53,992 nt of DNA from Acidobacteriota bacterium. GTDB taxonomy: Bacteria; Acidobacteriota; UBA4820; DSQY01. This document shows, one piece after another, positions 1 to 25,368 of this stretch. Each line of letters opens with the position of its first letter. The first letter of the stretch is position 1. The stretch covers positions 1 through 53,992 of the forward strand of contig JBJKRE010000253.1 in assembly GCA_046704825.1 (NCBI GenBank), in the 5' to 3' direction. The notes beneath the pieces were generated by a model. The model saw nothing but the letters and a program-made list of their open reading frames with translations, had not been told where the DNA came from and made no database searches. The position numbers and the translations under genes were made by a program.

Positions 1-195
1 CTTCCCCAGAACCTCCGGCCTCTTCTTGCCGAGAATCCGCTCGGCGGCCGTGTTGAAGCAGGTCAGGCGCCTGTCGAGGTCCATGGCCAGCACGCCGTCG
101 GAGATGCTGTTGAGAATGGTCTCGAAACGGTCGCGGTTGAAGCGCGAGATGTAGGCGGTCTCCGTACCGTTTTCCTCTTTCTTATTTCGATCCAT
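1..195 (-). CDS. PAS-domain protein, N-terminal fragment (gene runs off window start); candidate sensor or sigma54 activator
   Basis: Reverse-strand ATG at 195-193 opens MDRNKKEENGTETAYISRFNRDRFETILNSISDGVLAMDLDRRLTCFNTAAERILGKKRPEVLGK. The frame stays open to position 1. FETILNSISDGV..D....FN.AAE..G is a typical PAS N-terminus. Absent from the ORF track because it is truncated. Confidence 0.5.
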   Translation of the reverse strand, partial: MDRNKKEENGTETAYISRFNRDRFETILNSISDGVLAMDLDRRLTCFNTAAERILGKKRPEVLGK

Positions 196-371: not shown

Positions 372-387
372 TCGGCACGCTTCATGC
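372..387 (+). promoter_or_regulatory. Putative sigma54 (-24/-12) promoter of the tusA/hdrA-like operon
   Basis: cGGCACGcttcaTGCt. GG (373-374) and GC (385-386) have exactly the spacing of the TGGCACG-N4-TTGCW consensus. Lies about 63 nt upstream of the ATG at 450. Confidence 0.45.
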
Positions 388-449
388 TCTGCAAAGGGTC
401 CTGCACGGGTGCGGGGGGTCCGCGCCCGGCGATCGCCAAGGAGATCACC

Positions 450-710
450 ATGACGACTGAAGAACTCAAAGCGCTGAAGGCTGATGTACAGGTCGACGCC
501 AGGGGAACCGCGTGCCCCGGCCCCCTCCTCGAAGCCAAGCGGGCCATGGCCAAGGTCCCGAAGAACGGCGGCCTCCTGGAAGTCCTGTCCTCCGACGAGG
601 GAACCAACGAAGACATCCCCCTCTGGGCCCGGAAGTCCAAGCACGAGTACCTCGGCAACGTCGAGGAAGCGGGCTACTGGCGCCTCTTCGTCCGCCGGGG
701 CGCTCGATGA
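450..710 (+). CDS. TusA/SirA-family sulfur carrier protein (86 aa)
   Basis: Internal ATG at 450 preceded by AAGGAG (438-443). DARGTACPGPLLEAKRAM carries the CPxP active-site Cys motif. L.VLSSDEGTNEDIPLW matches the TusA fold signature. The upstream part of ORF 243..710 is Gly/Arg/Ala-rich junk. Confidence 0.85.
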   Translation: MTTEELKALKADVQVDARGTACPGPLLEAKRAMAKVPKNGGLLEVLSSDEGTNEDIPLWARKSKHEYLGNVEEAGYWRLFVRRGAR

Positions 711-1126
711 GCCAGACGCAGGCGCAGGGTGAAAGCGCGGATCCGAGGATCCTCGCTTTCACCACCCTCAACATTTCGGACCCGGGCGTCGACCTGGCCG
801 GAAGCGCGCACATGCACTACCCCCCGTCCGTGATCCCGCTGAGGGTCCCCTGCTCCAGCGGTATCCGGCCGGGCTGGATTCTCGACGCACTGGAATCGGG
901 GTTCGACGGCGTGTTCGTGGCGGCCGACGGCGGCGACTGCGCCTTCCTCCAGGACTGCACGTCGCGCACCGCCAAAGTCATCGACGAGGCGCAGGCGCTC
1001 CTCACGGAGCACGGGTACAGCCCGAAGCGCCTCAAGATGGCCGCCATCTGCTCGGTCTGCTCGGAGTCCTTCGTCTCTCACATGAAGAGCTTCAGCGAAC
1101 TCCTCAAAACAGTCAAAGACTCCTAA
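707..1126 (+). CDS. MvhD/FlpD-like (methyl-viologen-reducing hydrogenase delta subunit family) electron-transfer protein
   Basis: ATG at 707 overlaps the tusA-like stop (ATGA). YPPSVIPLRVPCSSGIRPGWILDALESGFDGVFVAADGGDCAF resembles the FlpD/MvhD core (YPPNV..IRV.CSGR.....IL.A...GADGV.V.GC..GDCH). Confidence 0.7.
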   Translation: MSQTQAQGESADPRILAFTTLNISDPGVDLAGSAHMHYPPSVIPLRVPCSSGIRPGWILDALESGFDGVFVAADGGDCAFLQDCTSRTAKVIDEAQALLTEHGYSPKRLKMAAICSVCSESFVSHMKSFSELLKTVKDS

Positions 1127-1142
1127 CAAGCGGGATATCACC

Positions 1143-3851
1143 ATGAATCAGGACGTTTTGATAGTCGGCGGCGGGATTGCGGGCATGGAGTCTGCGCTCA
1201 CCCTGGGCGACATGGGGTACAAGGTGCTGCTCGTCGAGAAAGAGGGCAGCGTCGGAGGGCACATGATCCTCCTGTCCAAGGTCTTCCCGACCCTGGACTG
1301 CGCCAGCTGCATCTCCACCCCCAAGATGGCCGCCACCGCGCACCACCCGAACGTCACGGTGCTCACCAACACCACGGTGGAGGCCATCGAGAAGCAGACC
1401 GACGGCACCTTCAAGGTCCGCCTCAACCGGAAGGTGACCTCCGTGAACGCGGCGGCCTGCACCGGCTGCGGCGAATGCGAGCTGGTGTGCACCGTCGCCA
1501 TTCCGGACGAGTTCAACTTCGACCTGGCCGCCCGCCGGGCCGCCCACATCCCCTTTCCGCAGGCCGTCCCCAAGAAGGCGATCATGACCCGGTACGGCAG
1601 CTCCCCCTGCTCCTTCACCTGCCCCGCAGGCGTCAAGGCGCACGGGTACGTGTCTCTCGTGCGCGCCGGGAAGTACGAGGAAGCCTTCAGGCTCCACATG
1701 GAGGACGCCCCTCTGCCCGGCACCCTGGCCCGGGCCTGCTACGCACCGTGCGAAGGGGCCTGCACGAGGGGCGAGGTCGAGGGTTCGGTCTCGATCCGGC
1801 AGATCAAACGGTTCATGGTGGACCGCTACTACGCCGACCACCCCGAGCCCGAATACGGGCCGCCCGACACGATCCTCGACCAGAAGGTCGCCGTGGTCGG
1901 ATCCGGCCCCGCGGGCCTCTCGGCGGCCTACCACCTGGCCCGAAAAGGCTACCGCGTCACGGTCTTCGAGGCCGACGAGGAGAGCGGAGGCATGCTGCGG
2001 TACGCCATTCCCGCCTACCGGCTCCCCAAGAACGTGGTGGACCGGGACATCGCCAACATCACGGCGCTGGGCGTGGAGATCCGCACGAACAGCCCTGTCA
2101 GATCCGCCAAGGCACTGAGGGACCAGGGCTACGACGCCGTGTTCCTGGGCGTCGGGACCTCCGAAGCCTGGAAGCTCGGGGTCGAGGGCGAGGACCTCGA
2201 AGGCGTCAGCGACTGCATCGGGTTCCTCAAGGACGCGAACACGGGACGGCTGAAGGACCTTTCGGGCAAGATCGTGGCCGTGATCGGCGGCGGCAACTCG
2301 GCCATGGACCCGGCGCGCCTGGCCGTCCGGCTCGGCGCGGCGAAGGTCGTGATCATGTACCGCAGGAGCCGGACCGAGATGCCGGCCCACGACTGGGAGG
2401 TCCAGGGCGCCCTGGACGAGGGCGTCCAGCTCGAGACGCTGAAGACGCCCAAGCGCTTCATCGGCGAGAACGGGCGGCTCACGAAGATCGAGTACATCCG
2501 CATGAAGCTGGGCGAGCCCGACGAGAGCGGCAGGCGCCGGCCGGTCCCGGTGGAAGGATCGGAGACCACGATGGACGTGGACCTTGCGGTCCTCGCCATC
2601 GGACTGAGGCCCAACACGAACCCCTTCGCGGGCGAACTGAAGGAAAAACGCGACGGTACCTTCAGCGTCGACGAGGAAACCCTTCTGACGCCGATCCCCG
2701 GGGTCTTCGCCGGTGGCGACGCCGTCACGGGCCCCTCCATGATCGTCAACGCCATCGGCCAGGGCAAGCGGGCCGCCTTCTACATCGACCGCTTCCTCAA
2801 GGGCGAGACGCTGGAAGGCCGGACCTTTGACGACAGGCTCGCCGAAGTTGACAAGAAGGAAGTCCTCGCGCGCGGTACCCTCTCGAAGCGCGAACGGAAG
2901 AACGCGCCCGAACTGCCCGTCTCCGAACGCGTCAAGAGCGTGGCGGAAATCGAGGGCTGCTTCACGGAAGAGGAGGCGAGGACCGCGGCGAACCGCTGCG
3001 TGGACTGCGGCGGGTGCGCCGAATGCCACGAATGCGTGAATACCTGCCCGGCCGACGCCATCGACTTCACGCTGCGCCCCGGCGAACAGACCGAGGCGGT
3101 GCGGTCGGTCATCGTGTCCACGGGCTACAAGCTCTTCGACCCTCACCACAAGGAAGCCTACGGCTACGGAAAGTACCCCAACGTCGTCACGGCCATGCAG
3201 ATGGACAGGCTCGTGGCGCCGACAAAACCCTACAACCACACGCTCCGCCCCTCGGACGGGAAGGCGCCGGACAACATCGCCTTCGTGCTGTGCACGGGGT
3301 CGCGCGACTGCACCGTCGGCAACCAGCTCTGCTCCAGGGTGTGCTGCATGTACTCCATCAAGCAGGCCCAGCTGATCATGGGCGCGCTGCCTCTGGCGGA
3401 CATCACCATCTACTTCATGGACATCCGGGCCTTCGGCAAGGGCTTCGAAGAGTTCTACCAGCAGGCCAAGGGCATGGGCGTGAACTTCGTGAAGGGCCGG
3501 GTGGCCAAGATCGAAGAGACCGAGGACCAGAACCTGGTCCTGCATTACGAGGACATCGAGGGGGGCGGCGGCCACGCAAAGGCCGAACACGACCTGGTCG
3601 TGCTCTCCGTGGGGCTCCTGCCCAATCCCGACGCCCTGAAGCTCTTCAAGGGAGGCGCGCTTCAGGCCGACCCCTACGCCTACGTCCGCGAGATCGACGA
3701 GGACCTCCTGCCGGCCATGACCAACATCGACGGCGTGTTCGTGGCCGGGACGTCGTCGGCCATCCGGGACATACCGGACACGATCCTGCATTCGGGAGCC
3801 GCCGCCGCTCAGACCGCGGCCTTCCTTGAGAAATCGGGGGTGCAACGATGA
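1143..3851 (+). CDS. HdrA-like flavoprotein with an inserted GltD/NfnB-like NAD(P)H:FAD oxidoreductase module (902 aa)
   Basis: N-terminus VLIVGGGIAGMESAL (FAD Rossmann). HdrA signature CTGSRDCTVGNQLCSRVCC lies near the C-terminus. Between them: CTGCGECELVC, then KVAVVGSGPAGLSAAYHLARKGYRVTVFEADEESGGMLRYAIPAYRLP, IVAVIGGGNSAMD and GVFAGGDAV (glutamate synthase small-subunit-like). A further ferredoxin motif is CVDCGGCAECHECVNTCP. Confidence 0.85.
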   Translation: MNQDVLIVGGGIAGMESALTLGDMGYKVLLVEKEGSVGGHMILLSKVFPTLDCASCISTPKMAATAHHPNVTVLTNTTVEAIEKQTDGTFKVRLNRKVTSVNAAACTGCGECELVCTVAIPDEFNFDLAARRAAHIPFPQAVPKKAIMTRYGSSPCSFTCPAGVKAHGYVSLVRAGKYEEAFRLHMEDAPLPGTLARACYAPCEGACTRGEVEGSVSIRQIKRFMVDRYYADHPEPEYGPPDTILDQKVAVVGSGPAGLSAAYHLARKGYRVTVFEADEESGGMLRYAIPAYRLPKNVVDRDIANITALGVEIRTNSPVRSAKALRDQGYDAVFLGVGTSEAWKLGVEGEDLEGVSDCIGFLKDANTGRLKDLSGKIVAVIGGGNSAMDPARLAVRLGAAKVVIMYRRSRTEMPAHDWEVQGALDEGVQLETLKTPKRFIGENGRLTKIEYIRMKLGEPDESGRRRPVPVEGSETTMDVDLAVLAIGLRPNTNPFAGELKEKRDGTFSVDEETLLTPIPGVFAGGDAVTGPSMIVNAIGQGKRAAFYIDRFLKGETLEGRTFDDRLAEVDKKEVLARGTLSKRERKNAPELPVSERVKSVAEIEGCFTEEEARTAANRCVDCGGCAECHECVNTCPADAIDFTLRPGEQTEAVRSVIVSTGYKLFDPHHKEAYGYGKYPNVVTAMQMDRLVAPTKPYNHTLRPSDGKAPDNIAFVLCTGSRDCTVGNQLCSRVCCMYSIKQAQLIMGALPLADITIYFMDIRAFGKGFEEFYQQAKGMGVNFVKGRVAKIEETEDQNLVLHYEDIEGGGGHAKAEHDLVVLSVGLLPNPDALKLFKGGALQADPYAYVREIDEDLLPAMTNIDGVFVAGTSSAIRDIPDTILHSGAAAAQTAAFLEKSGVQR

Positions 3852-5578
3852 GCGATCGACGACTGGGCGTTTTCATCTGCCACTGCGGGGGCAACATCTC
3901 GGACTACGTAGACGTGGAGAAGGTCCGCGCCGCGGTCGAGAACGACCCCGACGTGGTGGTCGCCAGAACCACCATGTTCGCCTGCTCGGACGCTTCCCAG
4001 GAAGAGATGAAGTCCGACATCGAAGCACACAATCTGGACGGGATCGTCGTCGCGTCCTGTTCGCCCAGACTCCACCTGGAGACCTTCAAGGGCGTGGCCT
4101 CGCGCGCCGGCATGAACCCCTACTGCTACTCGCAGGCCAACATCAGGGAGCAGTGCTCGTGGGCCCACAGGAACGAGATGCCGCAGGCCACCGACAAGGC
4201 GATCCGGATCATCCGCTCCGCCCTGGCCAAGACCCGTCTCAGCGAGCCGCTCAGCACGATCCGCGTGGAGACCACGCCGAAGGTCGTGGTCATCGGCGCG
4301 GGCGTCGCGGGGATGGTGGCATCCCTGACCCTGGCCGACATGGGCCTCGACGTCTTCCTCGTGGAGCGCGAGGCGAAGGTGGGCGGCTGGACCCGCCGGT
4401 GGGGAAAACTCTTCCCCAGCGACCGGAAGGGTGAGGACCTCGTGGAGGAACTCGCCGGCAAGGTCAAGGCCCAGCAGAGGATCACGCTCTTCACGCAGGC
4501 GGAGCTGATCGAGAAATCCGGCACGGTCGGCGACTTCACCGTGACGCTCCGCGTCCGGGACAAGAGCAACATCTCGCTGAAGGTCGGCGCGATCATCGTG
4601 GCCACGGGCTTCGATCCCTACCAGCCCGCCGAAGGCGAGTACGGGTGGGGCCAGAGCCGCGTCGTGACCCTGCCCCAGTACGAAGAGATGCTCGCGAAGG
4701 GCGACGGCGCCATCACCGTCGGCGGCAAGCCCGTCAAGACGGTGGCCTACGTCTACTGCGTCGGAAGCCGCCAGAGCGAGGACTGCGGCCTGGAGCACCC
4801 CAACCAGTACTGCTCTCGGTTCTGCTGCAGCGCCGCGGTGCACGCCGCCATCAAGGCCAGCGAGAGGGACCCCGGGGTGAACCAGGTCCACCTCTACCGC
4901 GACATGCGGACCTACGGCAAGTACGAACTGCTCTACGAGAAGGCGAGCCGCGACGGCTCCGTCTTCATCCGCTTCGACGAGGAGGCGCCGCCGGAGGTCT
5001 ACGACGAGGGCGACAAGATGATCGTGAAGGTCGCGGACGTCCTGGATGCCGGCGAAGAGATCGAGATCCCCGCCGACCTCGTCGTGCTCGTCACCGGCAT
5101 GGTGCCCAGGCAGAACGACGGACTCGTCGCCGCGCTCAAGATACCCACGGGCAGCGGCGGCTTCTTCAACGAGATCCACCCCAAATTGAGGCCGGTCGAG
5201 ACCGCGATCAACGGGGTCTTCATCGCGGGCGCCTCCCAGGGCCCCAAGACGGTGGCCGAGAGCGTCGCCTCGGCACTGGCCGCCGTGGCCAAGGGCGGCG
5301 CCCTGGTCATGAAGGGCTACGTGGACCTGGACCCCCACGTGGCGGTCGTGAACTCCGAGGCGTGCACGTGGTGCGGGAAGTGCGCCGAGGCATGCCCCTA
5401 CGACGCCATCGAGAAGGTCGAGGAAGGCGGCAGGGAGGTCGCACGGATCATCGACGCCCTGTGCAAGGGCGGCGGCCCCTGCGTGCCCGTCTGCCCGGAG
5501 GGCGCCATCGACCTCAAGGGCTACACCGACCGTCAGGTGCGGTCGATGATCGAATCCATGGTCAAGGAGGCGGTGTGA
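3848..5578 (+). CDS. HdrA/QmoA-B-like flavoprotein with C-terminal 2x[4Fe-4S] ferredoxin domain (576 aa)
   Basis: ATGA overlap with the previous gene. RLGVFICHCGGNI start. VVVIGAGVAGMVASL FAD motif. HdrA-type CVGSRQSEDCGLEHPNQYCSRFCC. C-terminal CTWCGKCAEACP and CKGGGPCVPVCP. Confidence 0.85.
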   Translation: MSDRRLGVFICHCGGNISDYVDVEKVRAAVENDPDVVVARTTMFACSDASQEEMKSDIEAHNLDGIVVASCSPRLHLETFKGVASRAGMNPYCYSQANIREQCSWAHRNEMPQATDKAIRIIRSALAKTRLSEPLSTIRVETTPKVVVIGAGVAGMVASLTLADMGLDVFLVEREAKVGGWTRRWGKLFPSDRKGEDLVEELAGKVKAQQRITLFTQAELIEKSGTVGDFTVTLRVRDKSNISLKVGAIIVATGFDPYQPAEGEYGWGQSRVVTLPQYEEMLAKGDGAITVGGKPVKTVAYVYCVGSRQSEDCGLEHPNQYCSRFCCSAAVHAAIKASERDPGVNQVHLYRDMRTYGKYELLYEKASRDGSVFIRFDEEAPPEVYDEGDKMIVKVADVLDAGEEIEIPADLVVLVTGMVPRQNDGLVAALKIPTGSGGFFNEIHPKLRPVETAINGVFIAGASQGPKTVAESVASALAAVAKGGALVMKGYVDLDPHVAVVNSEACTWCGKCAEACPYDAIEKVEEGGREVARIIDALCKGGGPCVPVCPEGAIDLKGYTDRQVRSMIESMVKEAV

Positions 5579-5829
5579 TGGAAAGCAAATCTCCCAGGGA
5601 CCTTCGCGAGATCATGCGTGACGAACTGGTGATGGGGGACAAGATCGCCGGCCTCCTCGAAGAAGGACCGATGACCATCCCGGAGATCGCCGAACGCCTC
5701 GGGAGTCCCAGCTACGAAGTCCAACTGTGGGTCATGGCCATGCGCCGGTACGGAAAGGTCGACGCCCTGCCCAAGGGCCGGGGCGACGACTACTTCACCT
5801 ACGGGCTCAAGGCGCAGGCCGAGTCATAA
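5578..5829 (+). CDS. Small winged-helix-like protein (83 aa), function unknown
   Basis: ATG at 5578 overlaps the hdrA-like stop (TGATG). MESKSPRDLREIMRDELVMGDKIAGLLEEGPMTIPEIAERLGSPSYEVQLWVMAMRRYGKVD has the size and pattern of a FeoC/ArsR-type wHTH. It is the tail of track ORF 4645..5829. Confidence 0.55.
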   Translation: MESKSPRDLREIMRDELVMGDKIAGLLEEGPMTIPEIAERLGSPSYEVQLWVMAMRRYGKVDALPKGRGDDYFTYGLKAQAES

Positions 5830-5846
5830 GTCTCCAGGAGATCCCG

Positions 5847-6950
5847 ATGCGATTAGATCCTTCACTGCACAGAAAGATAGGCCGTTTCGGGGGCGTGGAC
5901 GTGGACGCGTGCTACAACTGCGGCAACTGCACGGCGACCTGCAGCCTGTCCGACGAAGACCACGCCTTCCCGCGCCGGATGATGCACTACCTGCAGATCG
6001 GCAACCACGAGAAGCTCGTGGGGTCCCTGGACCCCTGGCTGTGTCACAACTGCGGCGACTGCAGCGCCCGGTGCCCCCGGGACGCCAGGCCCAGCGACGT
6101 GGTCAACGCCGTGCGCGCGGAGGCCGTCAAGTCATTCGCCTTCCCGTCCTTCATGGGCCGCATGGTCGCTTCGCCGAAGTGGCTTCCGGTCCTCTTCCTG
6201 CTGCCGCTCGGCCTCTTCATCGCCTTCGCCGAAGCCCTCAGGGGCATCACGAAGGCCACGCCCAGCCCCGAATTCTCCAACGTATTCCCCGAACTCCCGC
6301 TGGAGATATTCATGTTCGTCCTGTCGGCCCTCGTGATCCTGTCCTTCGCTCTGAGCATTTCGAAGTTCGTCAGGGCCACCGGGTCGAAAATCAAGGATTC
6401 CAGGCTGGTCAGGGGATTCGTGCCCGCCGCAAGGGAGATCCTCAGCCACGCCAGGTTCAGGAAATGCGAGGAGGAGAAGGGCCGCACCCTGGGTCACGTC
6501 CTCACCTTCTCCGGTTTCGTCACGCTGTTCATCGTAAGCTCTGTCGAGGGCCTGGGCACGTGGTTCCACGTGGTGACCCTGCCCCTTCCCTTCTGGGACG
6601 CGCACAACCTGCTCGCCTCGTTCCTGAAGATCGCGGCCAACGCGGGAGGGCTCGTGCTCCTCGCCGGTCTGGTCATGCTGCTGAGGGACCGCTACAGGGA
6701 CCCGGCAAAGCGTGCGAACTCGACCTACTTCGACTGGCTGCTGCCGTGGCTCCTGGTGAGCATCGTGCTGACGGGCTTTTTGAGCCAGGGCACCAGGCTC
6801 ATGGGGCTGGGGCACGTCATGTTCGGCGTCTACTTCGTTCACCTGACACTCATTTTCATGCTGTTCGCTTACATGCCGTTCTCGAAATTCGCCCACGTCA
6901 TATACCGGACGGTGGCCATGTCCATGGCCTCCCAACCCGGTGAACGCTGA
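5847..6950 (+). CDS. QmoC/HdrC-HdrE-like membrane iron-sulfur protein (2x[4Fe-4S] N-domain plus multi-TM cytochrome-b-like domain)
   Basis: ATG at 5847 preceded by CCAGGAG. CYNCGNCTATCS and CHNCGDCSARCP motifs. Followed by about 5-6 hydrophobic helices (WLPVLFLLPLGLFIAF, IFMFVLSALVILSFAL, VLTFSGFVTLFIV, GLVLLAGLVML, LPWLLVSIVLTGF, VYFVHLTLIFMLFAYMPFSKFAH). Confidence 0.75.
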   Translation: MRLDPSLHRKIGRFGGVDVDACYNCGNCTATCSLSDEDHAFPRRMMHYLQIGNHEKLVGSLDPWLCHNCGDCSARCPRDARPSDVVNAVRAEAVKSFAFPSFMGRMVASPKWLPVLFLLPLGLFIAFAEALRGITKATPSPEFSNVFPELPLEIFMFVLSALVILSFALSISKFVRATGSKIKDSRLVRGFVPAAREILSHARFRKCEEEKGRTLGHVLTFSGFVTLFIVSSVEGLGTWFHVVTLPLPFWDAHNLLASFLKIAANAGGLVLLAGLVMLLRDRYRDPAKRANSTYFDWLLPWLLVSIVLTGFLSQGTRLMGLGHVMFGVYFVHLTLIFMLFAYMPFSKFAHVIYRTVAMSMASQPGER

Positions 6951-6968
6951 GGCAGGAGGGGACCTGAA

Positions 6969-7355
6969 ATGCCGGAACTCGAAGAAGAATCGAAGAAGGA
7001 AAAACTGGTCGTTATCGGCACGCACGGCGGCGAGGACCCCGAACGGGCGAGCCTGCCCTTCGTGGTCGCCAACGCCGCGTTGGCCATGGACGTGGCGGCA
7101 ACCGTCATCCTGCAGTCGACGGCGGTCACGCTCGCGGCACCGGGCTGCTACGAGCACGTCTTCGCGCCGGGCCTGCCGCCGCTCAAGGATCTCGTGGACT
7201 CCTTCCTGGAACAGGGCGGCAACCTGCTGGTGTGCACCCCCTGCCTCGACGAGAGGAAGATCGACAAGGCCTCGCTGCTCCAGGGGGCCGCACCGGTGAA
7301 GGCCGGGCGCGTCGTGGTCGAAATCCTCGAAGCCACCAACGCGATCACCTACTAG
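6969..7355 (+). CDS. DsrE/DsrF-family sulfur-relay-like protein (128 aa)
   Basis: KLVVIGTHGGEDPERASLPFVVANAALAMDVAATVILQSTAV ... GGNLLVCTPCLDERKI is the DsrE/YchN-like alpha/beta pattern with a conserved Cys region. Confidence 0.7.
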   Translation: MPELEEESKKEKLVVIGTHGGEDPERASLPFVVANAALAMDVAATVILQSTAVTLAAPGCYEHVFAPGLPPLKDLVDSFLEQGGNLLVCTPCLDERKIDKASLLQGAAPVKAGRVVVEILEATNAITY

Positions 7356-7436
7356 AGTTCGTCCTCGCCGGCCAGAGCCGGCCGGGACGGGGGGCAGATG
7401 CCGGGCGGCCGGACCGGCCAGCCCACGGAGGTAGCC

Positions 7437-8258
7437 ATGTCCGTAATAGCCATTTCGAGAGGAAGCCTGACGGCGGCCACGCACCTCGCCGAGGAGTTGG
7501 GCAAGAGACTGGGCAGCCGGGTGATCAGCCGTGAGGAGGTCATCGACGCGGCCGAGCGGTACGGCATAGACCAGACCGGAATCAGCCGGGAGAACATCAT
7601 CGGCGAGTTCCCGCCCGGTTTCTGGGAGCGATACGCCGACGCGAGGCACCACTACCTCGTCTGTTTCCGCGCAGCGCTCCTGGACTTCGCCGTCAGGGAG
7701 CCCATCATCTACCACGGCAACCTGGCCCACGTCCTTCTCAACGACGTACCCTTCACGTTTCGGGTGAGGGTCAACGCCCCGGAAGAAAACCGGGTGCGGA
7801 TGCTGATGGAGGAGCGGGGGTACACCCGCGAGCGGGCCGCCGCCGAGGTCCGGGAGATGGACCGCCGGCGAAGGCGCTGGGTCGCCTTCCTGTACGATGC
7901 CGACTTCGGCAACACGGTCCCCTTCGACCTGGTGCTGAACATGCGGCTGATCACCATCGCCGACGCCGTGGACCTGGTATCGGCCGAGATTCAGAAACCG
8001 GCCTTCCAGAGGACGGAGGAGACCGTTAAAACGCTGTTCGACCTCCGCCTCGGCGCCATCGCCGAGGCGCAGCTCCTGCACTGCCACGCGACCTACGGGC
8101 TCGGCCTGGAGGTGTCCGGGGACTCGATCACCGGCAGGGTGACGGTCTGCAGGGGTCCGTCGGGCTCGGACGACGACACGGTCGACGCCGAAATCCGCGA
8201 AGCCCTCGAGGGGCTGGACGCTGTAAAAGAAGTGGACGTTCAGGTGAAGAGCAACTGA
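7437..8258 (+). CDS. Cytidylate-kinase-like family (PF13189-type) protein with non-canonical P-loop; C-terminal small alpha/beta (BON-like?) domain
   Basis: ATG at 7437 after GGAGGT. MSVIAISRGSLTAATHLAEELGKRLGSRVISREEVI resembles the ISR..GSGG...A..LA..LG start of the family, but GSGG is replaced by GSLTAA. Confidence 0.45.
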   Translation: MSVIAISRGSLTAATHLAEELGKRLGSRVISREEVIDAAERYGIDQTGISRENIIGEFPPGFWERYADARHHYLVCFRAALLDFAVREPIIYHGNLAHVLLNDVPFTFRVRVNAPEENRVRMLMEERGYTRERAAAEVREMDRRRRRWVAFLYDADFGNTVPFDLVLNMRLITIADAVDLVSAEIQKPAFQRTEETVKTLFDLRLGAIAEAQLLHCHATYGLGLEVSGDSITGRVTVCRGPSGSDDDTVDAEIREALEGLDAVKEVDVQVKSN

Positions 8259-8406
8259 CGCGCAAGCGCCGGGCGGGGAGGGCGCGTTCCGCCGCAGACG
8301 CGGCAACTCGGTTCTCCCGCGGCCCGGCTGGACGTCCGGATGCCGTGAACGTCGAGGCGCCCCCCAGAGGGCGTCTGACAGCGGCCCCGGGCCATAGGAA
8401 GGCACC

Positions 8407-8943
8407 ATGACGGATCAAATCGAAGAGAACCTGCAGCAGGAAGATGAGATGGACATCGTGGAGGAAGAGAACGAGAAGATGACCCTCCTGGTGTTCTCCA
8501 GCGATCTGGACAAGGTCCTGGGGGCTTTCGTCGTGGCTACGGGCGCGGCGCTGATGGACATCGAGGTGACCATGTTCTTCGCGTTCTGGGGACTGAACGT
8601 CCTTCGGAAGAAAGGAGCCAAGACCAAGGGGAAGTCCTTCGTTCACCGGATGATGGGACGGATGCTCCCCAAGGGCCCGGACGAGCTGAAGCTCTCCAAC
8701 ATGAACATGATGGGACTCGGCACCAGGATGATGAAGGGCATCATGAAGAAGCAGAAGGTCATGGACCTCCCGTCCCTCATGAAGCTCGCCCAGGACCTGG
8801 ACATAAGGTTCGTGGCCTGCGAGATGTCCATGAACGTCATGGGGATGAAAAAGGAAGAACTGCTGGACGGCGTCCAGCTGGCCGGCGTCGCCACCGCCGT
8901 GGCCAGGGCGTCGGAGTCCAAGACCACGCTGTTTATCAGTTGA
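8407..8943 (+). CDS. DsrE-like protein of the COG2210 ('peroxiredoxin family'/YrkE-like) type
   Basis: MTLLVFSSDLDKVLGAFVVATGAALMDIEVTMFFAFWGLNVL ... IRFVACEMSMNVMG ... is the characteristic COG2210 pattern, including the conserved Cys in VACEMS. Confidence 0.7.
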   Translation: MTDQIEENLQQEDEMDIVEEENEKMTLLVFSSDLDKVLGAFVVATGAALMDIEVTMFFAFWGLNVLRKKGAKTKGKSFVHRMMGRMLPKGPDELKLSNMNMMGLGTRMMKGIMKKQKVMDLPSLMKLAQDLDIRFVACEMSMNVMGMKKEELLDGVQLAGVATAVARASESKTTLFIS

Positions 8944-9050
8944 CCGCTGACCGCTGACCGCCGACCGCGGACGGCGGACGACCGGGAGGATATCCCCCTA
9001 TGCCCCGGAACGGCTGCAGGAGGGACCTTCAGGTCGCGATTCTTCGAAGG
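8941..9050. repeat. Copy of the composite intergenic repeat family (heptamer array plus TTCGAAGG core)
   Basis: tgaCCGCTGACCGCTGACCGCCGACCGCGGACGGCGGACGACC oligo array, followed at 9041-9053 by TCTTCGAAGGCACCG (compare 39533-39545 GTCGAAGGCACCG). Confidence 0.45.
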
Positions 9051-9163
9051 CACCGCGGAACGGTGAGCAGGAACCGCGGTGCGGGAACACGGGCGCGAAG
9101 CCTGCAGGGTGGACCCGGGGGCCGCAGGTCCGAGCGTCCACCGACCGCATCTCACTCGAACGC

Positions 9164-9199
9164 AAAAAGGGCGGCCGCCTGAGGGCGGCCGCCTTTTTA
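9164..9199. terminator. Bidirectional rho-independent terminator between convergent operons
   Basis: AAAAAG-GGCGGCCGCC-TGAG-GGCGGCCGCC-TTTTT: a 10-bp GC stem, 4-nt loop, with an A-tract on one side and a T-tract on the other. Confidence 0.8.
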
Positions 9200-9226
9200 G
9201 TGTGCCGAATGAGCGGGGCTCCGGGC

Positions 9227-10207
9227 TCAGCCCTGGGCCTTCAGCTCCTTCACCGCCTGCGTAAGCAGGGGCACGACCTCGAAGAGGTCGCCCACGATGC
9301 CGTAGTTGGCGACCTTGAAGATCGGCGCTTCGGGATCCTTGTTGACGGCCACGATCACCTTGGAGCTGGACATGCCCGCCAGGTGCTGGATGGCGCCCGA
9401 TATGCCACACGCGATGTAAAGGGACGGGCTCACGACCTTGCCGGTCTGTCCGACCTGATGCGCATGGTCGATCCAGCCCGCGTCCACGGCCGCACGGGAG
9501 GCCCCAACGGCGGCGCCGAGAAGCCCCGCGAGTTCTTCCAGGATCTTGTAGTTCTCGGGGCCCTTCATGCCGCGGCCGCCCGAAATGATGACGTCCGCCT
9601 CCGCCACGTCCAGCATTCCGCCCTCGGCAGCGAGGATCTGTTCGACGACGGCCTTCGCGTCGCCCGAGGTCACGCCGTGTTCGAGGGGTACGATTTCGGG
9701 GGTCTTGGCCGCGTCCCCCACCGGGAACACGTTGGGCCGCAGGGTCACCCCGAACGGCTTGCCGGCCTTCGGCGTCAGGGTGGCGAAGGCTTTGCCGGAG
9801 AAGATGGGCCGCGTAAAGACGACGGCGCCGCCCTCCACCGTGTAGCCGGTGACGTCGGACAGGAGTCCGATATCGAGCCTGCCCGTGACCTTGGGCGCGA
9901 GGTCCTTGCCCATGGCCGTGGCCGACATGAGGAGCACGTCGGCCCCGAAGGCGCCGAAGGCCTTGGCGACCGCCAGCCCGTACGCGTCGTTGCTGTACTT
10001 CTCGAAGATGCCGTCGTCACCGACGAAGACCTTCTCGGCGCCGACCTTGCCCAGTTCCTCGGCGAGCGAGCCGATGGACTGGCCAAGGACCACCGCCGCC
10101 GCCGAGCCACCGGTCTGGTCCGCAATGGCTCTCCCGGCCGACATGGCTTCGAGGGAGGCTTTCTTGAGTTTGCCGCTGCGCTGTTCCGCAAATACCAGAA
10201 CGTTCAT
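9227..10207 (-). CDS. etfA: Electron transfer flavoprotein alpha subunit
   Basis: [14 protein letters not shown] start. C-terminal FAD-binding signature [35 protein letters not shown]. Confidence 0.92.
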
Positions 10208-10222
10208 TTTCGACCTCCCTTG

Positions 10223-11008
10223 TCAGATAACCTTGGCCTCTTCGTGAAGAAGCTGGACGAGTTCCTTCACCTGGTCCGGGATCTCTCCCTCCAGAACCCT
10301 GCCGGCCGGTCTCGGGGGCGGGAGTTCGTATTTCTTGAGTTCGAAGGCCGCTGCGCCGGTACCCACCGTGGATGCGTCCAGGCCGAGGTCGGCCGCCGAA
10401 TAGGTCGCGACTTCCTTCTTCTTGGCCTGCATGATGCCCTTGAGTGATGGGTAGCGGGGCTCGTTCAGTCCCTTCTGGCAGGTCAGAACCGCGGGGAGGG
10501 AGGTCTTGACGACCTCGGCACCGCCCTCGATCTCGCGCGTGCACGTCGCGTTCGTGCCGTCCAGTTCGAGCTTGGTCACCACGGTCACGGCCGGGATGTC
10601 CAGGAGCTGGGCCAGCAGCGAGCCGACCTGCTGGTTATCCTCGCCCACGCCGTGCTTGCCGGTCAGTATCAGGTCGAAGGGCTGCTTTTTGACGGCTGCC
10701 GCGAGGGTTTTCGCGGTGGCCATCGCGTCGTTGCCTTCGAAGGCCGTATCCGAAGCCAGGACCGCCTTGTCGGCGCCCATGGCCAGGGCCTGCCGGAGGG
10801 TCTTCGTCGCGTCGTCGCCACCCACGGTGAGGACCGTCACCTCGCCTCCGAGCTTCTCTTTGAGAAGAAGCGCCTCTTCCACCGCGAACTCGTCGTAGGG
10901 GTTCATGACGAAATTCGCCTCGGAGAGGTCGAGGTGCAAACCGTCCGGGGCAATCTTGACACGGGTCTCCGTGTCGGGGACGTGTTTAACGCACACCAGA
11001 ATGTTCAT
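10223..11008 (-). CDS. etfB: Electron transfer flavoprotein beta subunit
   Basis: MNILVCVKHVPDTETRVKI start (ATG at 11008, GGAGG 5 nt upstream). LILTGKHGVGEDNQQVG. 15-nt gap to etfA. Confidence 0.92.
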   Translation of the reverse strand: MNILVCVKHVPDTETRVKIAPDGLHLDLSEANFVMNPYDEFAVEEALLLKEKLGGEVTVLTVGGDDATKTLRQALAMGADKAVLASDTAFEGNDAMATAKTLAAAVKKQPFDLILTGKHGVGEDNQQVGSLLAQLLDIPAVTVVTKLELDGTNATCTREIEGGAEVVKTSLPAVLTCQKGLNEPRYPSLKGIMQAKKKEVATYSAADLGLDASTVGTGAAAFELKKYELPPPRPAGRVLEGEIPDQVKELVQLLHEEAKVI

Positions 11009-11300
11009 CAGCACCTCCTAAATGGATTCGATTACCTGCGCTGCCCCCGACGAACAAAGCTAGTGAGTACTCGCTTGCTCATCGTAGCGCCCTTATAATT
11101 AGAGCATATCATTGCTCATATACCCGTGACAAGGCCCTTATCCAGCGGCATGGTTCGGTCCCGGAAGAGGCGCCTTCTTCACCGGCTTCCTATAACGACG
11201 CCGAGGGGGAAAACATTCGGTGGTCGCCCGTCGCCGGACCGAAAATAACCGGCCGGCCGGTCTGAAACGTCACGAAGGATCGATCAGGGATTGCTGTTCG

Positions 11301-12563
11301 CTAGCGGTCGCCGGCGTCGAATTTCGAGAGCACGAGGCAGGCGTTCGTGCCGCCGAAGCCGAAGGAGTTGGACAGCGCGTGCTCGATGGCCATAGGCCTG
11401 GCCTCGTTGGGCACGTAGTCCAGGTCGCACGCGGGGTCGGGCGTGCGCAGGTTGATGGTGGGCGGCGCGATCCCGTCCCTCATGGCCTGGATGGTGAGGA
11501 TCGCCTCGAGCCCGCCGGCTGCTCCCAGGAGGTGGCCAGTCATGCTCTTGGTGGAAGAGACCGCCACGGTGGCGGCGTGATCTCCGAAACAGCGCTTCAC
11601 GGCGAGCGTCTCCACCGAGTCGCCCGCGGGCGTTGAGGTACCGTGGGCGTTGATGTACTGGATATCCGACGGGGGCAGCCCGGCGTCCTCCAGAGCGTTC
11701 ACCATGGCGCGCATGGGGCCGTCGCCGTCCTCCGACGGCGCGCTGACGTGGAAGGCGTCCCCGCTCATGCCGTAGCCCGTGAGTTCGCACATGATACGGG
11801 CGCCTCTCGCCCGGGCGTGTTCGAGGGACTCGAGGACGAGCACTCCGGCACCCTCGCCCATGACGAACCCGTCCCTGTCGGCGTCGTACGGGCGCGATGC
11901 GGTTTCGGGCTCGTCGTTTCGGGTTGACAGCGCCCTCATGGCCGCAAATCCTGGGATGGACAGCGGGGTCACGGCCGCCTCGGCGCCGCCCGAGATCATG
12001 ACGTCTGCATCGCCCCGCTGGATGTAGCGCATGGATTCACCGATGGCGTGCGAGGCCGTGGCGCAGGCCGTCACGGTGGAGATGTTCGGTCCCTTCGCCC
12101 CGTGGCGGATGGAAATCTGGCCGCTCGCCATGTTGATGATGATGCCGGGGATGAAGAAGGGGCTGACGCGTCCCCAGCCCCTCTCCATGAGAATCTTGTG
12201 CTGTTCTTCGATGGTGCGCAGCCCGCCGATGCCGCTTCCGACGGCCACGCCCACCCGTTCGGCGTTCCCGGAGGTTATCTCCAGGCCGCTCATGGCCAGA
12301 GCTTCCTGGGTGGCCGCCAGCGCGAACTGGATGAAGCGGTCGATCTTGCGGGCGTCCTTCTTGTCCATGTAGTTGAGCGGATCGAAACCGGGGACCTGCC
12401 CCGCTATGCGGACGGGGTAGGAGGATACGTCGAAGCCCTCGATGGGACCGATCCCGCTCTCACCCTTGAGGACGCGCTCCCACGTACCTTCCGCGGTGAG
12501 GGAGAGGGGCGACAACACTCCGTACCCAGTTACGACCACTCGGCGCTTCACGGGTGGCTCCAC
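11301..12563 (-). CDS. fabF: 3-oxoacyl-ACP synthase II
   Basis: KRRVVVTGYGVLSPL. Active-site TVTACATASHAIG. NAHGTSTPAGD and KSMTGHLLGAAG His motifs. The true start may be the GTG at 12551 (VKRR), with GGTGGAG as RBS. Confidence 0.92.
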   Translation of the reverse strand: MEPPVKRRVVVTGYGVLSPLSLTAEGTWERVLKGESGIGPIEGFDVSSYPVRIAGQVPGFDPLNYMDKKDARKIDRFIQFALAATQEALAMSGLEITSGNAERVGVAVGSGIGGLRTIEEQHKILMERGWGRVSPFFIPGIIINMASGQISIRHGAKGPNISTVTACATASHAIGESMRYIQRGDADVMISGGAEAAVTPLSIPGFAAMRALSTRNDEPETASRPYDADRDGFVMGEGAGVLVLESLEHARARGARIMCELTGYGMSGDAFHVSAPSEDGDGPMRAMVNALEDAGLPPSDIQYINAHGTSTPAGDSVETLAVKRCFGDHAATVAVSSTKSMTGHLLGAAGGLEAILTIQAMRDGIAPPTINLRTPDPACDLDYVPNEARPMAIEHALSNSFGFGGTNACLVLSKFDAGDR

Positions 12564-12800
12564 CTATTTTTCTACGTGGGCTTTAATGTAGTCGATTGCG
12601 GCTTGGACGGTCTGGATCTTCTCGGCCTCTTCGTCGGAGATCTCGATCCCGAACTCTTCTTCCAGGGCCATGATCAGCTCTACGGTGTCGAGGGAATCGG
12701 CTCCCAGGTCATTGATGAAGGACGCCTCGGGCTTCACTTCTGATTCGTCTACGCTCAATTGGTCGGCGATGATGCTTATCACCTTTTGTTCAACGTTCAT
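12564..12800 (-). CDS. acpP: Acyl carrier protein
   Basis: [15 protein letters not shown]...[24 protein letters not shown] (DSL phosphopantetheine site). ATG at 12800 with GGAGG upstream. Confidence 0.93.
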
Positions 12801-12944
12801 CGGCATGATCCTCCATAGCACGAGGGGGGGATTCTACCTTTAAATGGAGGGAAATGCAAGAGGAGGCCCGGGTTGCGCGCTGGCCAACCAGCGAGGCAAA
12901 CTGTAAAATGAGGATCCGCGGACAGGGAAAGCAGGAGGAACCCG

Positions 12945-13628
12945 ATGGGACACAGGGCGGCGGTTATCGAGGACGAAAGGGACATTCAGGAAACCCTCTG
13001 CTACGCACTCGAGCGCGAGGGCTACGAGGTCGACGGCTTCGGCGACGGTGCCACGGCCCTTCTGGCTTTCCGGGACCGCGTCCCGGACGTCGTCATCATC
13101 GACTGGATGCTCCCCGGCATGTCCGGCGTGGACCTGTGCAGGATCCTCCGCGGCGACCAGCGCTTCAGCAAAACGGGATTGCTGATCCTCACGGCGCGGG
13201 GCACCGAGATGGACGTGGTGGCCGGCCTCAGTTCGGGCGCGGACGACTACGTGATCAAACCCTTCCGGACCCGCGAACTGCTGGCCAGGGTGAAGGCCAT
13301 CCTGAGACGGTACACGGCCGAGCCGGACGCCTCCAACATCAAGCGCGTGGGGGGCATCTGGCTGGACACTGCCACCTACCGGTCCGGTTCGGGCGACACG
13401 GTGTTCGACCTTACCCCCACGGAGTTCAAGATTCTCGAGCTGCTCGTCCGCCACCCCGGCAGGGTGTACTCACGGGGCCAGATCCTGAACAACCTCTGGC
13501 CGGATGACAAGGCCGTCGAGGACCGGGCCGTGGACGTTCACATCGCGCGGCTGCCCGACAAGATGGGACAGGAGAGCGGCAGGGTCGAGTCGGTCCGTGG
13601 CGTGGGCTACCGGCTGAGGGCCGAATAA
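12945..13628 (+). CDS. OmpR/PhoB-family response regulator
   Basis: Receiver domain VVIIDWMLPGMSG, ILTARG, DDYVIKPF. Winged-helix output LTPTEFKILELLVRHPGRVYSRGQIL...VDVHIARL..K....VRGVGYRL. Confidence 0.9.
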   Translation: MGHRAAVIEDERDIQETLCYALEREGYEVDGFGDGATALLAFRDRVPDVVIIDWMLPGMSGVDLCRILRGDQRFSKTGLLILTARGTEMDVVAGLSSGADDYVIKPFRTRELLARVKAILRRYTAEPDASNIKRVGGIWLDTATYRSGSGDTVFDLTPTEFKILELLVRHPGRVYSRGQILNNLWPDDKAVEDRAVDVHIARLPDKMGQESGRVESVRGVGYRLRAE

Positions 13629-14986
13629 TGAGGTATTTCAGGCGCTTCCTCCTGCTCATCGCCTCGGTGATACTGCTCTTCGTGTGGCCGGGCGGCGTGG
13701 AGGGCACAGCGGCGTGGCTGGTCAGAATCCTGGTCGTCGTGGCCGCGGCGGCCATCGCCACCCACTGGGCAGTGGCCCCCTGGAAGGAGTTCGAGGTCGC
13801 CGCGTCCAGGGTCCAGGACGGCGACTTCGCCGCCAGGCTCGACGACATTTCTCCGGGAGACCTGGTCACGCCCTCCAGGACGTTCAACTCCATGGCCCAC
13901 AACCTGTTCAGGTCCCTGGAACTGGCCAGGCAGAGGGAGCAGAGGCTCATGGCCGTGCTGGCGGCCACGGACCGGGCGATCCTGGTGCTCGACCGCGACG
14001 GCGAAGTCGTCCTGTCCAGCCCCGTCACCTTCAACCTTTTCCCGCGCTTCAGCGAGAAGGGCGGCGTTCCGAGCCTCGCCCTTCCGGGCATGGGGCAACT
14101 GATAGAAGACGCCCAGCAGAACCGGGAGACCCGGCGCAAAAAGATCGAGGAGGGCGAGCGCGGGCGGGGTCGCGTCTTCGTGGCACAGGTGACGCCGCTC
14201 CAGAAGGAGGGCGCGGTCATATATTTAAGAGACATCACGCAGGAAGCCCACCTGGAGAGGATGAAGGCCGACCTCGTGGCGAACGTCTCGCACGAACTGC
14301 GGACCCCCCTCACGGCCTTGAGTTCCCTCAGCGAGACCCTGGCCGACGACGGCCTCCCGCCCGATCGGCGCACCTACTTCTCCCAGCGGCTCGAACACCA
14401 GATCACCAGGATGCGGGCGCTCGTCGACGACCTTCTCTCGCTCTCGCGACTGGAGGCCGAAGAGATGACCGCCCAGGCCGAGCGGGTCTCGCTCTCCGCC
14501 TTCTGTTCCGACCTGATCAAGAGCCTCCAGCCCCTCGCAGAGTCCACGTCGGTCAGGCTCTCGGTGGACTGCCCGGACACGTGCGTCGCATATACGGACC
14601 GCGGTCTCCTCGAGATGGCCGTGCGCAACCTCGTGGACAACGGCATCCGTTACAACCGCCCCGGCGGACAGGTCCGGCTGATGTGCCTCCAGGAGGACGG
14701 GAGCCTGAGGCTCCAGGTGGAAGATACGGGGGAGGGCATCCCCAACCAGCACCTCACGCGGATTTTCGAGCGTTTCTACCGGGTCGACCCGCACCGCTCC
14801 AGGGAGCGCGGCGGAACGGGGCTGGGCCTGGCCATCGTCAAACACGCAGTCAACAAGCTCGGCGGCGAGATCGAAGTCCACAGCACGGTGGGCAAGGGCA
14901 GTACGTTCACCCTCCGGCTCCCCGCCGAGGGGCCCGAAAAAGAGAGAGAACCCGCGCCCCCGGACCGCAATGAGGACCCCACCTGA
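13628..14986 (+). CDS. Sensor histidine kinase (TM-HAMP-PAS-HisKA-HATPase), cognate to the preceding regulator
   Basis: TAATG overlap. H-box NVSHELRTPLTAL. N/G boxes VDNGIRYN, VEDTGEGI, GGTGLGLAIVKH. Confidence 0.9.
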   Translation: MRYFRRFLLLIASVILLFVWPGGVEGTAAWLVRILVVVAAAAIATHWAVAPWKEFEVAASRVQDGDFAARLDDISPGDLVTPSRTFNSMAHNLFRSLELARQREQRLMAVLAATDRAILVLDRDGEVVLSSPVTFNLFPRFSEKGGVPSLALPGMGQLIEDAQQNRETRRKKIEEGERGRGRVFVAQVTPLQKEGAVIYLRDITQEAHLERMKADLVANVSHELRTPLTALSSLSETLADDGLPPDRRTYFSQRLEHQITRMRALVDDLLSLSRLEAEEMTAQAERVSLSAFCSDLIKSLQPLAESTSVRLSVDCPDTCVAYTDRGLLEMAVRNLVDNGIRYNRPGGQVRLMCLQEDGSLRLQVEDTGEGIPNQHLTRIFERFYRVDPHRSRERGGTGLGLAIVKHAVNKLGGEIEVHSTVGKGSTFTLRLPAEGPEKEREPAPPDRNEDPT

Positions 14987-16928: not shown

Positions 16929-16987
16929 CCGGCCGGTCGTAACGGCCGGTGCCCGCATTCGGCGGATAACGGGAGGCTAGGGGGACC

Positions 16988-18652: not shown

Positions 18653-18667
18653 CCCCCCTGAACACAC

Positions 18668-24001: not shown

Positions 24002-25368
<1,367 letters not shown>

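Follow-up and report, generated by a model that had tools for sequence, protein, structure and literature searches.

Modules of the Hdr/Qmo type, for which methanogens, sulfate reducers and sulfur oxidisers are the main known hosts, are central to anaerobic energy conservation. QmoABC comprises two HdrA-related flavoproteins, an MvhD-like element and the anchor subunit QmoC with iron-sulfur (FeS) and cytochrome b parts, and its operon may end in QmoC or, as in the QmoAB-HdrCB pair, in HdrCB (PMC6397845, PMC10504309). 'Type II' Qmo proteins, found with or without Dsr/Apr, are the object of a call for experimental study (PMC10504309). In sHdr (shdrC1B1AHC2B2 plus LbpA), an Hdr-like complex is linked to TusA, DsrE-family carriers and rhodaneses, and a small 'hypothetical' gene follows hdrA (PMC11094781). 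The name HdrL denotes an HdrA with two NAD/FAD-binding domains (FAD, flavin adenine dinucleotide) encoded beside MvhD in Desulfobacterium autotrophicum and Desulfurivibrio (PMC12142623, citing Strittmatter 2009). The present analysis concerns a nine-gene cluster at the start of contig JBJKRE010000253.1 (assembly GCA_046704825.1) of an Acidobacteriota bacterium, in which TusA- and DsrE-type sulfur carriers are encoded together with an MvhD-like protein, two HdrA-type flavoproteins and a QmoC. The window analysed is this complete contig of 53,992 bp, whose record holds nothing upstream of position 1. The cluster is widespread and previously undescribed, yet assembled from familiar modules; full-text literature searches found no description of it, and its nearest published mentions are 'HdrL' and 'type II Qmo', to which no role is assigned there. 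The firm part of the interpretation, as read from sequence, is an assembly of the Hdr/Qmo type that has several flavins and FeS centres, an NAD(P)H site and a membrane anchor linked to quinone, and that is evolutionarily tied to sulfur carriers. The reading preferred here, held tentatively and with somewhat less than even confidence, is that the complex encoded by the operon transfers electrons, perhaps with bifurcation, between NAD(P)H, menaquinone and sulfane sulfur bound to TusA/DsrE.

Nine open reading frames (ORFs) run in one direction on the + strand from 450 to 8943, as given by the ORF list together with Pfam and NCBIfam matches (lengths in amino acids, aa):

450..710, + strand: TusA-family sulfur carrier, 86 aa, with a CPGP active-site motif (PF01206, 1.7e-21)
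707..1126, + strand: MvhD/FlpD-like iron-sulfur protein, 139 aa (PF02662, 1.7e-27)
1143..3851, + strand: HdrL-type HdrA, 902 aa, an HdrA core with an inserted GltD/NfnB-like NAD(P)H-FAD-2x[4Fe-4S] module
3848..5578, + strand: HdrA, 576 aa, with N-terminal Cys-rich, FAD and C-terminal ferredoxin (Fer4 dicluster tail) domains
5578..5829, + strand: small winged-helix protein, 83 aa, no Cys, weak TrmB/FaeA Pfam matches
5847..6950, + strand: QmoC, an HdrC-like 2x[4Fe-4S] domain and a six-helix NarI-like membrane domain (NCBIfam qmoC)
6969..7355, + strand: DsrE-family carrier, 128 aa, with a C89-x-P-C92 motif (PF02635, 1.2e-12)
7398..8258, + strand: Cytidylate_kin2-like protein, 286 aa, or 273 aa if the ATG at 7437 is used (PF13189, 2.2e-25)
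8407..8943, + strand: DsrE2-like (DrsE_2, COG2210-type) carrier, 178 aa (PF13686, 1.3e-53)

The family searches bear out the nine domain identities proposed in the original prediction, which was made from the sequence alone; only its start for TusA, at 372, gives way to 450 as the most likely one. The operon-like packing that it described is real: an ATGA overlap of tusA and mvhD is read in the sequence at 707-710, overlaps at 3848 and at 5578 (TGATG, at the junction of the 576-aa hdrA with the winged-helix gene) are deduced from the ORF coordinates, and the remaining intergenic gaps measure 16-42 bp, the exception being 148 bp ahead of the last gene. No terminator-like site was found on the + strand within the nine-gene block, and the nine genes are read as a single operon.

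A scan with one genome per species yielded more than 590 stretches that encode relatives of the 902-aa protein; counts of loci given below refer to the best 80. Neighbours are alike in all 80, which come from at least 12 phyla and follow the order TusA-MvhD-HdrL-HdrA-(winged helix)-X, with DsrE and/or DsrE2. In related loci, tusA stands immediately 5' of mvhD, and most have one or more DsrE-type carriers beside the core. Hosts belong to Acidobacteriota, Gemmatimonadota, Alpha-, Gamma- and 'Delta'-proteobacteria, Actinomycetota, Chloroflexota, Bacteroidota, Bacillota, Zixibacteria, Verrucomicrobiota, Dormibacterota, Aminicenantes and Ignavibacteriales. One locus (L001), 98% identical to the window, reaches 10 kb further upstream. 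The link between sulfur carriers and an Hdr module, which the original prediction had made dependent on conserved synteny, is thus upheld, and chance juxtaposition of carriers and redox genes is ruled out by the same 80 loci.

The core of the assembly lies in its two flavoproteins. The 902-aa protein is an HdrA with a second NAD(P)H/FAD module, in other words of HdrL type. It matches Pyr_redox_2 and Fer4_20 in Pfam, whereas NCBIfam assigns residues 150-648 to a GltD-like family (NF009410, 518 bits) and residues 618-899 to an HdrA-like one; both ends of the protein are HdrA-like, PDB matches are NfnB- and StnA-like, and the match to methanogen HdrA (5odc_A) has E = 7.1e-103. A construct lacking the GltD part gives a colinear alignment to residues 144-284 and 288-561 of HdrA, and the GltD/NfnB-like module therefore separates the two [4Fe-4S] motifs that the inserted ferredoxin domain contains. 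This module consists of Fer4_20, an FAD site and the NAD(P)H motifs GGGNxAxD and YRR, each kept in 91-100% of 81 HdrL homologues, which supports the predicted link to NAD(P)H; the cluster Cys and the GxGxxG motif are kept across the same homologues. HdrL is devoid of the N-terminal Cys domain and of the C-terminal ferredoxin domain, and it retains DC53xxC56, whose C56 falls, in the alignment, where HdrA of 9sfi has its selenocysteine.

The 576-aa HdrA aligns with residues 1-235 and 317-652 of methanogen HdrA 5odc_A (E = 8.9e-116) and has no inserted ferredoxin domain. Cys conservation was assessed in 69 homologues, and the DCxxC position is never Cys among them. Of the 2x[4Fe-4S] tail originally attributed to this protein, the dicluster tail itself stands, but the second ferredoxin motif, CKGGGPCVPVCP (5468-5497, residues 539-549), reads CKGGGPC and is one Cys short, Gly replacing the usual second Cys; 12 of the 69 homologues have the same substitution and three others have Glu. 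Both flavoproteins possess the FAD site and the conserved cluster Cys of HdrA, both score under the NCBIfam HdrA equivalog cut-offs, and cluster Cys are conserved at 96-100% across the redox-core proteins. Since the two proteins hold complementary halves of HdrA features (DCxxC and the inserted ferredoxin domain in HdrL, the N-terminal Cys and C-terminal ferredoxin domains in the 576-aa HdrA), an HdrL:HdrA heterodimer, possibly obligate and modelled on the HdrA2 dimer, is suggested. The third core protein, MvhD-like, has the C-terminal MvhD domain of HdrA2 as its top NCBIfam match. Its invariant Cys among 60 homologues are C49, C78, C84, C115 and C118; the N-terminal CCxxC of methanogen MvhD is missing, and with C84, C115 and C118 as the other invariant Cys, the ligation or type of cluster may differ.

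Compared with HdrABC-MvhAGD (5odc), the core thus shares the HdrA fold, the FAD site, the cluster motifs, the MvhD-type subunit and the HdrC-type dicluster domain that links to the terminal module. It differs in the proposed pairing of two differently truncated HdrA proteins instead of a homodimer, in its inserted NAD(P)H module, in its quinone-linked terminal module, and in having neither an adjoining hydrogenase nor an HdrB with two CCG domains. The likeness to HdrL of D. autotrophicum and Desulfurivibrio, drawn from the published description, covers the HdrA with an additional NAD(P)H/FAD module and the paired MvhD gene; the neighbours described for those genes, however, are formate dehydrogenase and Wood-Ljungdahl genes, and not TusA, DsrE, a second HdrA or QmoC (PMC12142623). 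FlxABCD-HdrABC/DsrC and DsrMK/DsrC offer a functional parallel, namely an Hdr supplied by NAD(P)H, or a module of cytochrome b and CCG, that acts upon a two-Cys sulfur carrier protein (PMC10504309). Here, NAD(P)H would enter through the GltD-like insert and not through FlxABC, and the carriers are TusA/DsrE, a DsrC-like protein being encoded in just 4 of the 80 loci.

The small winged-helix gene that follows is present in 62 of the 80 loci. The AlphaFold2 model of its product has a mean pLDDT (predicted local distance difference test) of 86, and Foldseek retrieves generic winged-helix folds of the ArsR/SmtB type with E of about 4e-4. Assignment as a DsrD-like protein is not supported, as Pfam gives no DsrD match and the Foldseek folds are generic ArsR/SmtB ones; nor is assignment as a persulfide-sensing regulator of the SqrR/BigR type, the protein having no Cys and only that generic fold. 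It may be a conserved subunit or a minimal regulator.

The next position in the operon distinguishes two forms of the cluster. In the window it is occupied by QmoC, which reaches 324.4 bits against a cut-off of 300 for the NCBIfam qmoC equivalog, shows six hydrophobic segments in a hydropathy scan, and conserves eight cluster Cys together with C207, H217, H332 and H350, the three His being invariant. The equivalog score, the six transmembrane segments and the conserved His support the quinone link that had been predicted. Among the related loci, this slot after the winged-helix gene holds a QmoC-type protein in 51 of 80, whereas in 23 of 80 it holds a 100-aa HdrC-like dicluster protein and an HdrB-like protein of ~320 aa with a single CCG domain (PF02754). 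The two never occur together, and five of the other six loci are truncated by contig ends. The HdrC/HdrB form is found in a cultured sulfate reducer, Desulfofundulus thermobenzoicus DSM 14055, with the order tusA-mvhD-hdrL-hdrA-wHTH-hdrC-hdrB-dsrE-dsrE2 (wHTH, winged helix) and an adjoining CsoR-family repressor. As the same HdrC-like dicluster domain begins both, QmoC and HdrCB look like alternative terminal acceptor/donor modules, for which the QmoABC and QmoAB-HdrCB pair is a known parallel (PMC6397845, PMC10504309). Absence of any HdrB/CCG protein, which the original prediction took for a defining trait, is consequently not one: the window is the membrane variant of a two-variant family. 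Whether DsrE or DsrE2 is present shows no association with the QmoC or the HdrCB variant, and TusA, DsrE and DsrE2 are retained with either terminal module, so that the carriers are part of the common core.

The search for missing partners was extended beyond the operon. No CCG domain was found in the 54-kb window or in L001, its 10 kb of additional upstream sequence included, by regular expression, tblastn or a profile of 22 HdrB-like relatives. An HdrB concealed just outside the window, the case that the original prediction had allowed for, is accordingly rejected: the window is the whole contig, and the upstream 10 kb of L001 holds no CCG gene. Ten further large ORFs were scanned (12.9-34.1 kb) and encode mostly regulators and housekeeping proteins, a carboxyltransferase and a peptidase among them. 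As predicted, no CCG, hydrogenase or formate dehydrogenase gene adjoins the operon, and neither hydrogenase, formate dehydrogenase, apr, sat nor dsr was found in these scanned parts of the contig.

The QmoC sequence itself raises the question of a divergent QmoABC serving an adenosine 5'-phosphosulfate (APS) reductase encoded elsewhere in the genome. Besides exceeding the equivalog cut-off, the window QmoC has its nearest relatives outside the family in aprBA-qmoA-qmoB-qmoC-dsrAB clusters (47-52% identity; L081 8001-9092 and L082 3677-4801), and its identity with the QmoC-like subunits encoded at other HdrL loci is only ~30%; in most relatives these subunits score 159-209 bits, under the qmoC cut-off. 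The window QmoC is therefore of the canonical apr-associated type and the terminal module has been swapped more than once; in the window lineage, as judged from these comparisons, a canonical QmoC has replaced the previous module. The rest of the operon is unlike Qmo. MvhD is here a separate 139-aa protein, whereas QmoB carries a fused C-terminal MvhD-like domain (in the true qmo cluster L082, QmoB has 751 aa with a fused FlpD domain); QmoA has ~400 aa, whereas the flavoproteins here have 902 and 576 aa and qualify neither as QmoA nor as QmoB; one of them bears a GltD/NfnB-like NAD(P)H module; a small winged-helix gene is inserted; and TusA, DsrE and DsrE2 take the place of aprBA/sat as constant partners. 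Neither aprBA nor sat turned up where the contig was scanned or in the sequence flanking the 80 related loci, and the same core occurs with non-canonical QmoC-like proteins or HdrCB in many taxa not known as sulfate reducers. Service to an APS reductase is thus a very improbable role for the complex.

The carriers are assigned at family level. TusA scores 76 bits with PF01206, over the cut-off of 28.6, and has the CPxP Cys, so that it belongs to the TusA family, but it does not reach the NCBIfam equivalog for the E. coli-type TusA (36.7 against 78). In DsrE, the CxPC motif is well conserved: of 29 homologues, 97% have C89 and 93% have C92. Published lists of selenoprotein families include DsrE-like UxxC proteins (PMC9312934), an argument for a redox role of the motif. 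The DsrE2-like protein has a C138 that is invariant (100% of 61 homologues); it satisfies Pfam DrsE_2 (182 bits) and remains below the NCBIfam equivalog SulfCarrDsrE2 (76 bits against 210), and is therefore a family member, not the named equivalog. The set of carriers brings the cluster close to sHdr, and the small gene after hdrA is another shared trait (PMC11094781). The differences are nevertheless marked: the window has no HdrB and the sister variant one single-CCG HdrB; the HdrA proteins are far nearer to methanogen HdrA (E about 1e-116) than to sHdrA 6tjr (about 1e-36); and the NAD(P)H module is built in, whereas sHdr works through lipoate and LbpA. The sHdr gene orders, shdrC1B1AHC2B2 or shdrC1B1AHB3-etfAB-emo, are not found in the window, where etfBA is convergent and lies beyond a terminator.

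Genes recurring around the core also concern sulfur. Rhodanese genes recur beside it; in two Bacteroidales loci (L034 2251-6889, L075 3686-8301), TusA, a YeeE/YedE transporter, a rhodanese, a porin and a second rhodanese are encoded directly upstream, and the porin-YeeE/YedE-TusA-rhodanese set resembles a system for importing thiosulfate or sulfane sulfur. In 4 of 80 loci the core is accompanied by genes for a DsrC-like protein and a pyridine-nucleotide-disulfide oxidoreductase, and in three by one for a cysteine desulfurase. Regulators differ by lineage, with Crp in Bacteroidota, PadR and hemerythrin in Chloroflexota and the CsoR family in Bacillota. Taken together, the rhodanese, YeeE/YedE, DsrC-like, desulfurase and regulator neighbours point to sulfane sulfur or thiosulfate as what is handled, and away from dissimilatory sulfate metabolism of the classical kind.

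Selenium, instead of sulfur, could be the element handled, the system then serving selenium trafficking or reduction that feeds selenophosphate synthesis. TusA also scores against YedF selenium-metabolism models, NF045663 ('diclust_near_Sec') has matches in HdrL (GltD part, 3.8e-55) and in the HdrB-like protein of a Bacillota locus, L018 (6.4e-13), and YedE/YedF, DsrE-like proteins, HdrA and MvhD have all been linked to selenium biology (PMC9312934). All these selenium-family matches fall under the family cut-offs, however, and the TusA model outscores the YedF model for TusA. No selD or Sec-machinery gene is among the annotated neighbours, and the rhodanese, DsrC-like and DsrE2 neighbours indicate sulfur. 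A selenium function is accordingly given very little weight.

From the domain content, cofactor motifs, synteny and module swap described above, we infer complex formation, substrate, direction and bifurcation as follows. The MvhD-like protein, the HdrL:HdrA heterodimer and QmoC, perhaps with the winged-helix protein, would form a membrane-anchored complex with a dedicated carrier set consisting of TusA, the DsrE with its CxPC motif and DsrE2. Three ports would serve it: NAD(P)H would bind to the GltD-like module of HdrL, QmoC with its FeS and cytochrome b parts would give access to the menaquinone pool, and the MvhD side would be the third. NAD(P)H would feed the HdrA-type flavins; one electron would pass downhill via QmoC to menaquinone or, in the sister clusters, to the CCG-type disulfide site, while the second, low-potential electron would reduce an S-S bond on TusA/DsrE (a persulfide, a thiosulfonate or the CxPC disulfide) and sulfide would be released. 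Overall, imported or stress-derived sulfane sulfur or thiosulfate would be converted to sulfide in a reaction tied to the redox pools. The model fits because both terminal modules hold an equivalent position behind an HdrC-type domain and because the carriers are retained in both variants. Thiosulfate reduction has an E0' near -400 mV, below the reach of NAD(P)H alone, and a bifurcating module would therefore be needed for it.

Several observations weigh against this interpretation. The QmoC variant, having no CCG domain, possesses no recognisable site for S-S reduction. In methanogen HdrA, the branch on which the GltD module is placed leads to ferredoxin, so that NAD(P)+ could be an acceptor instead of NAD(P)H a donor. 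Bifurcation is not required for the reduction of persulfides by NAD(P)H. The Cys pattern of the MvhD-like protein is atypical, and hosts span fermenters to probable aerobes, which a single physiological role may not fit. Furthermore, the candidate sigma-54 promoter upstream of the operon is rejected as firm evidence, as 28 matches of equal quality occur in the window compared with 45 expected from shuffles.

The same complex may also work in the opposite direction. Sulfide or the sulfane sulfur of the carriers would then be oxidised and the electrons split between menaquinone (downhill) and NAD(P)+ (uphill), so that NAD(P)H would be made without reverse electron transport, by a logic akin to that of sHdr or of a reversed Qmo, with an NAD(P)+ reductase built in. 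This accords with the wiring of the GltD module to the low-potential-acceptor branch of methanogen HdrA and with the potentials of thiol/persulfide couples, which, at about -200 to -270 mV, fall between NAD(P)H and menaquinone. The QmoC of the window is of the type present in acidobacterial apr-qmo-dsr clusters, and sets of TusA, DsrE2 and rhodanese are typical of the sulfur-oxidising sHdr and rDsr systems (PMC11094781). Conversely, the QmoC variant has no catalytic site for the oxidation of thiol or sulfane sulfur, the HdrCB variant has no quinone outlet, and many hosts are fermentative Bacteroidales or Anaerolineae-like metagenome-assembled genomes with no known sulfur lithotrophy. Oxidation is considered rather unlikely, although the placement of the GltD module allows for it equally.

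A function in general redox balancing would dispense with sulfur as a substrate altogether. The complex would be an NAD(P)H:menaquinone/ferredoxin oxidoreductase, bifurcating or confurcating and comparable to FixABCX, and the carriers would serve cofactor maturation, regulation or an unrelated pathway. The core does have, on its own, ports for NAD(P)H, quinone and MvhD; no sulfur-reactive site is present in the QmoC variant, and convergent etfBA genes adjoin the operon. Yet tusA precedes mvhD in related loci, most loci in at least 12 phyla have at least one DsrE-type carrier, and further sulfur genes have been recruited nearby; with the carriers persisting across phyla, a direct functional link is hard to avoid. 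This function is therefore regarded as quite unlikely and, like the APS reductase and selenium alternatives, it is less likely than carrier-linked sulfur reduction or its reversal.

Within the preferred reading, a bolder and, on the whole, unlikely proposal is that the family constitutes a hitherto unrecognised, phylum-spanning class of flavin-based bifurcating enzymes driven by NAD(P)H, of which the sequence shows the HdrA-type flavin sites and the three ports, and in which the low-potential acceptor would be sulfane sulfur or thiosulfonate bound to TusA/DsrE, not ferredoxin, and the high-potential acceptor would be menaquinone in the QmoC variant or a disulfide in the HdrCB variant. Soil and sediment heterotrophs among the Bacteroidota, Chloroflexota, Actinomycetota and Acidobacteriota would, in that case, gain a cytoplasmic thiosulfate/persulfide reduction and have a hidden part in sulfur cycling. 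The HdrL/carrier cluster occurs in many species of at least 12 phyla, mostly not considered sulfur specialists. If carrier-bound sulfur is indeed processed, the cluster would connect the sulfur pool with NAD(P)H and the quinone pool through a cytoplasmic route of wide occurrence, exemplify the exchange of QmoC and HdrCB on a constant flavoprotein core, and lend a function to proteins annotated only as 'FAD-dependent oxidoreductase' or 'heterodisulfide reductase subunit A'. The question is testable in D. thermobenzoicus DSM 14055, a cultured carrier of the cluster; among hosts of the QmoC variant, the Propionicimonas isolate of locus L067 is in culture.

Signals and genes that frame the operon are the following:

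1..195, - strand: 5' part of a divergent PAS-domain sigma-54 activator, truncated by the contig end, with the translation MDRNKKEENGTETAYISRFNRDRFETILNSISDGVLAMDL...
373..387, + strand: candidate sigma-54 -24/-12 element CGGCACGCTTCATGC, weak, 63 nt upstream of the TusA start
9160-9203, no strand assigned: bidirectional intrinsic terminator, a stem of ten G-C pairs closed by a 4-nt loop, with A5 and T5 on opposite sides

The translation of the truncated gene is the start of a 478-aa ORF in L001 (7635-9071, - strand), which clusters with a protein bearing PAS, Sigma54_activat and HTH_8 domains; a sigma-54/PAS regulator adjoins the cluster in 12 of the 80 loci. The candidate element has GG-N10-GC spacing and two mismatches relative to TGGCAC-N5-TTGC, and is the same in L001 and L002; no consistent occurrence of the motif was seen at other related loci. 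It is favoured because of its position and the neighbouring activator, nothing else, and the operon is probably activated via sigma-54 by the divergent PAS regulator. The terminator predicted at the end of the operon is present as the G-C hairpin GGCGGCCGCC-tgag-GGCGGCCGCC, located between the nine genes and the convergent etfBA. A scan of the whole window with Rfam returned zero RNA families. Right after the dsrE2 stop, at 8943-8984, degenerate short direct repeats with ACCGCTG or ACCGCCG units are found.

The Cytidylate_kin2-like gene was correctly identified by domain in the original prediction, but it does not belong to the conserved set: it is present in only 4-6 related loci, Acidobacteriota wherever a taxon is named, which rules it out as a core component and makes it, as judged from this distribution, a lineage-specific accessory. 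By eye, and without comparison with the family consensus, its P-loop appears degenerate (AISRGSLTAAT); a C-terminal extension of ~90 aa has no Pfam match.

Repressors of the CsoR/RcnR/FrmR family (PF02583) adjoin the cluster in two Bacillota loci, L018 (1170-1514, - strand) and L074 (8621-9001, - strand), and a homologue that clusters with them is encoded elsewhere in L056 (1766-2077); they could be CstR-like persulfide sensors. Another block recurs near the cluster (L041 16053-20565; L004 7994-10229), with genes for DUF134, NifX-like (Nitro_FeMo-Co), ARMT1-like and CGGC-domain proteins and for two MinD/ParA-type ATPases with Fer4 inserts.

In the window beyond the terminator, the - strand from 9227 to 12821 encodes the convergent etfA, etfB and fabF, identified by reading of their translations without a family-library scan, and an 85-aa ORF at the position of an acyl-carrier protein; these genes appear to lie outside the operon. 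Further along, a 613-aa ORF (16850-18691, - strand) has no Pfam match at E <= 1e-5. The region 21704-30722 is rich in signalling genes, among them three for large histidine kinases with PAS domains and one for a sigma-54 response regulator, and a second two-component pair is found at 12945-14986.

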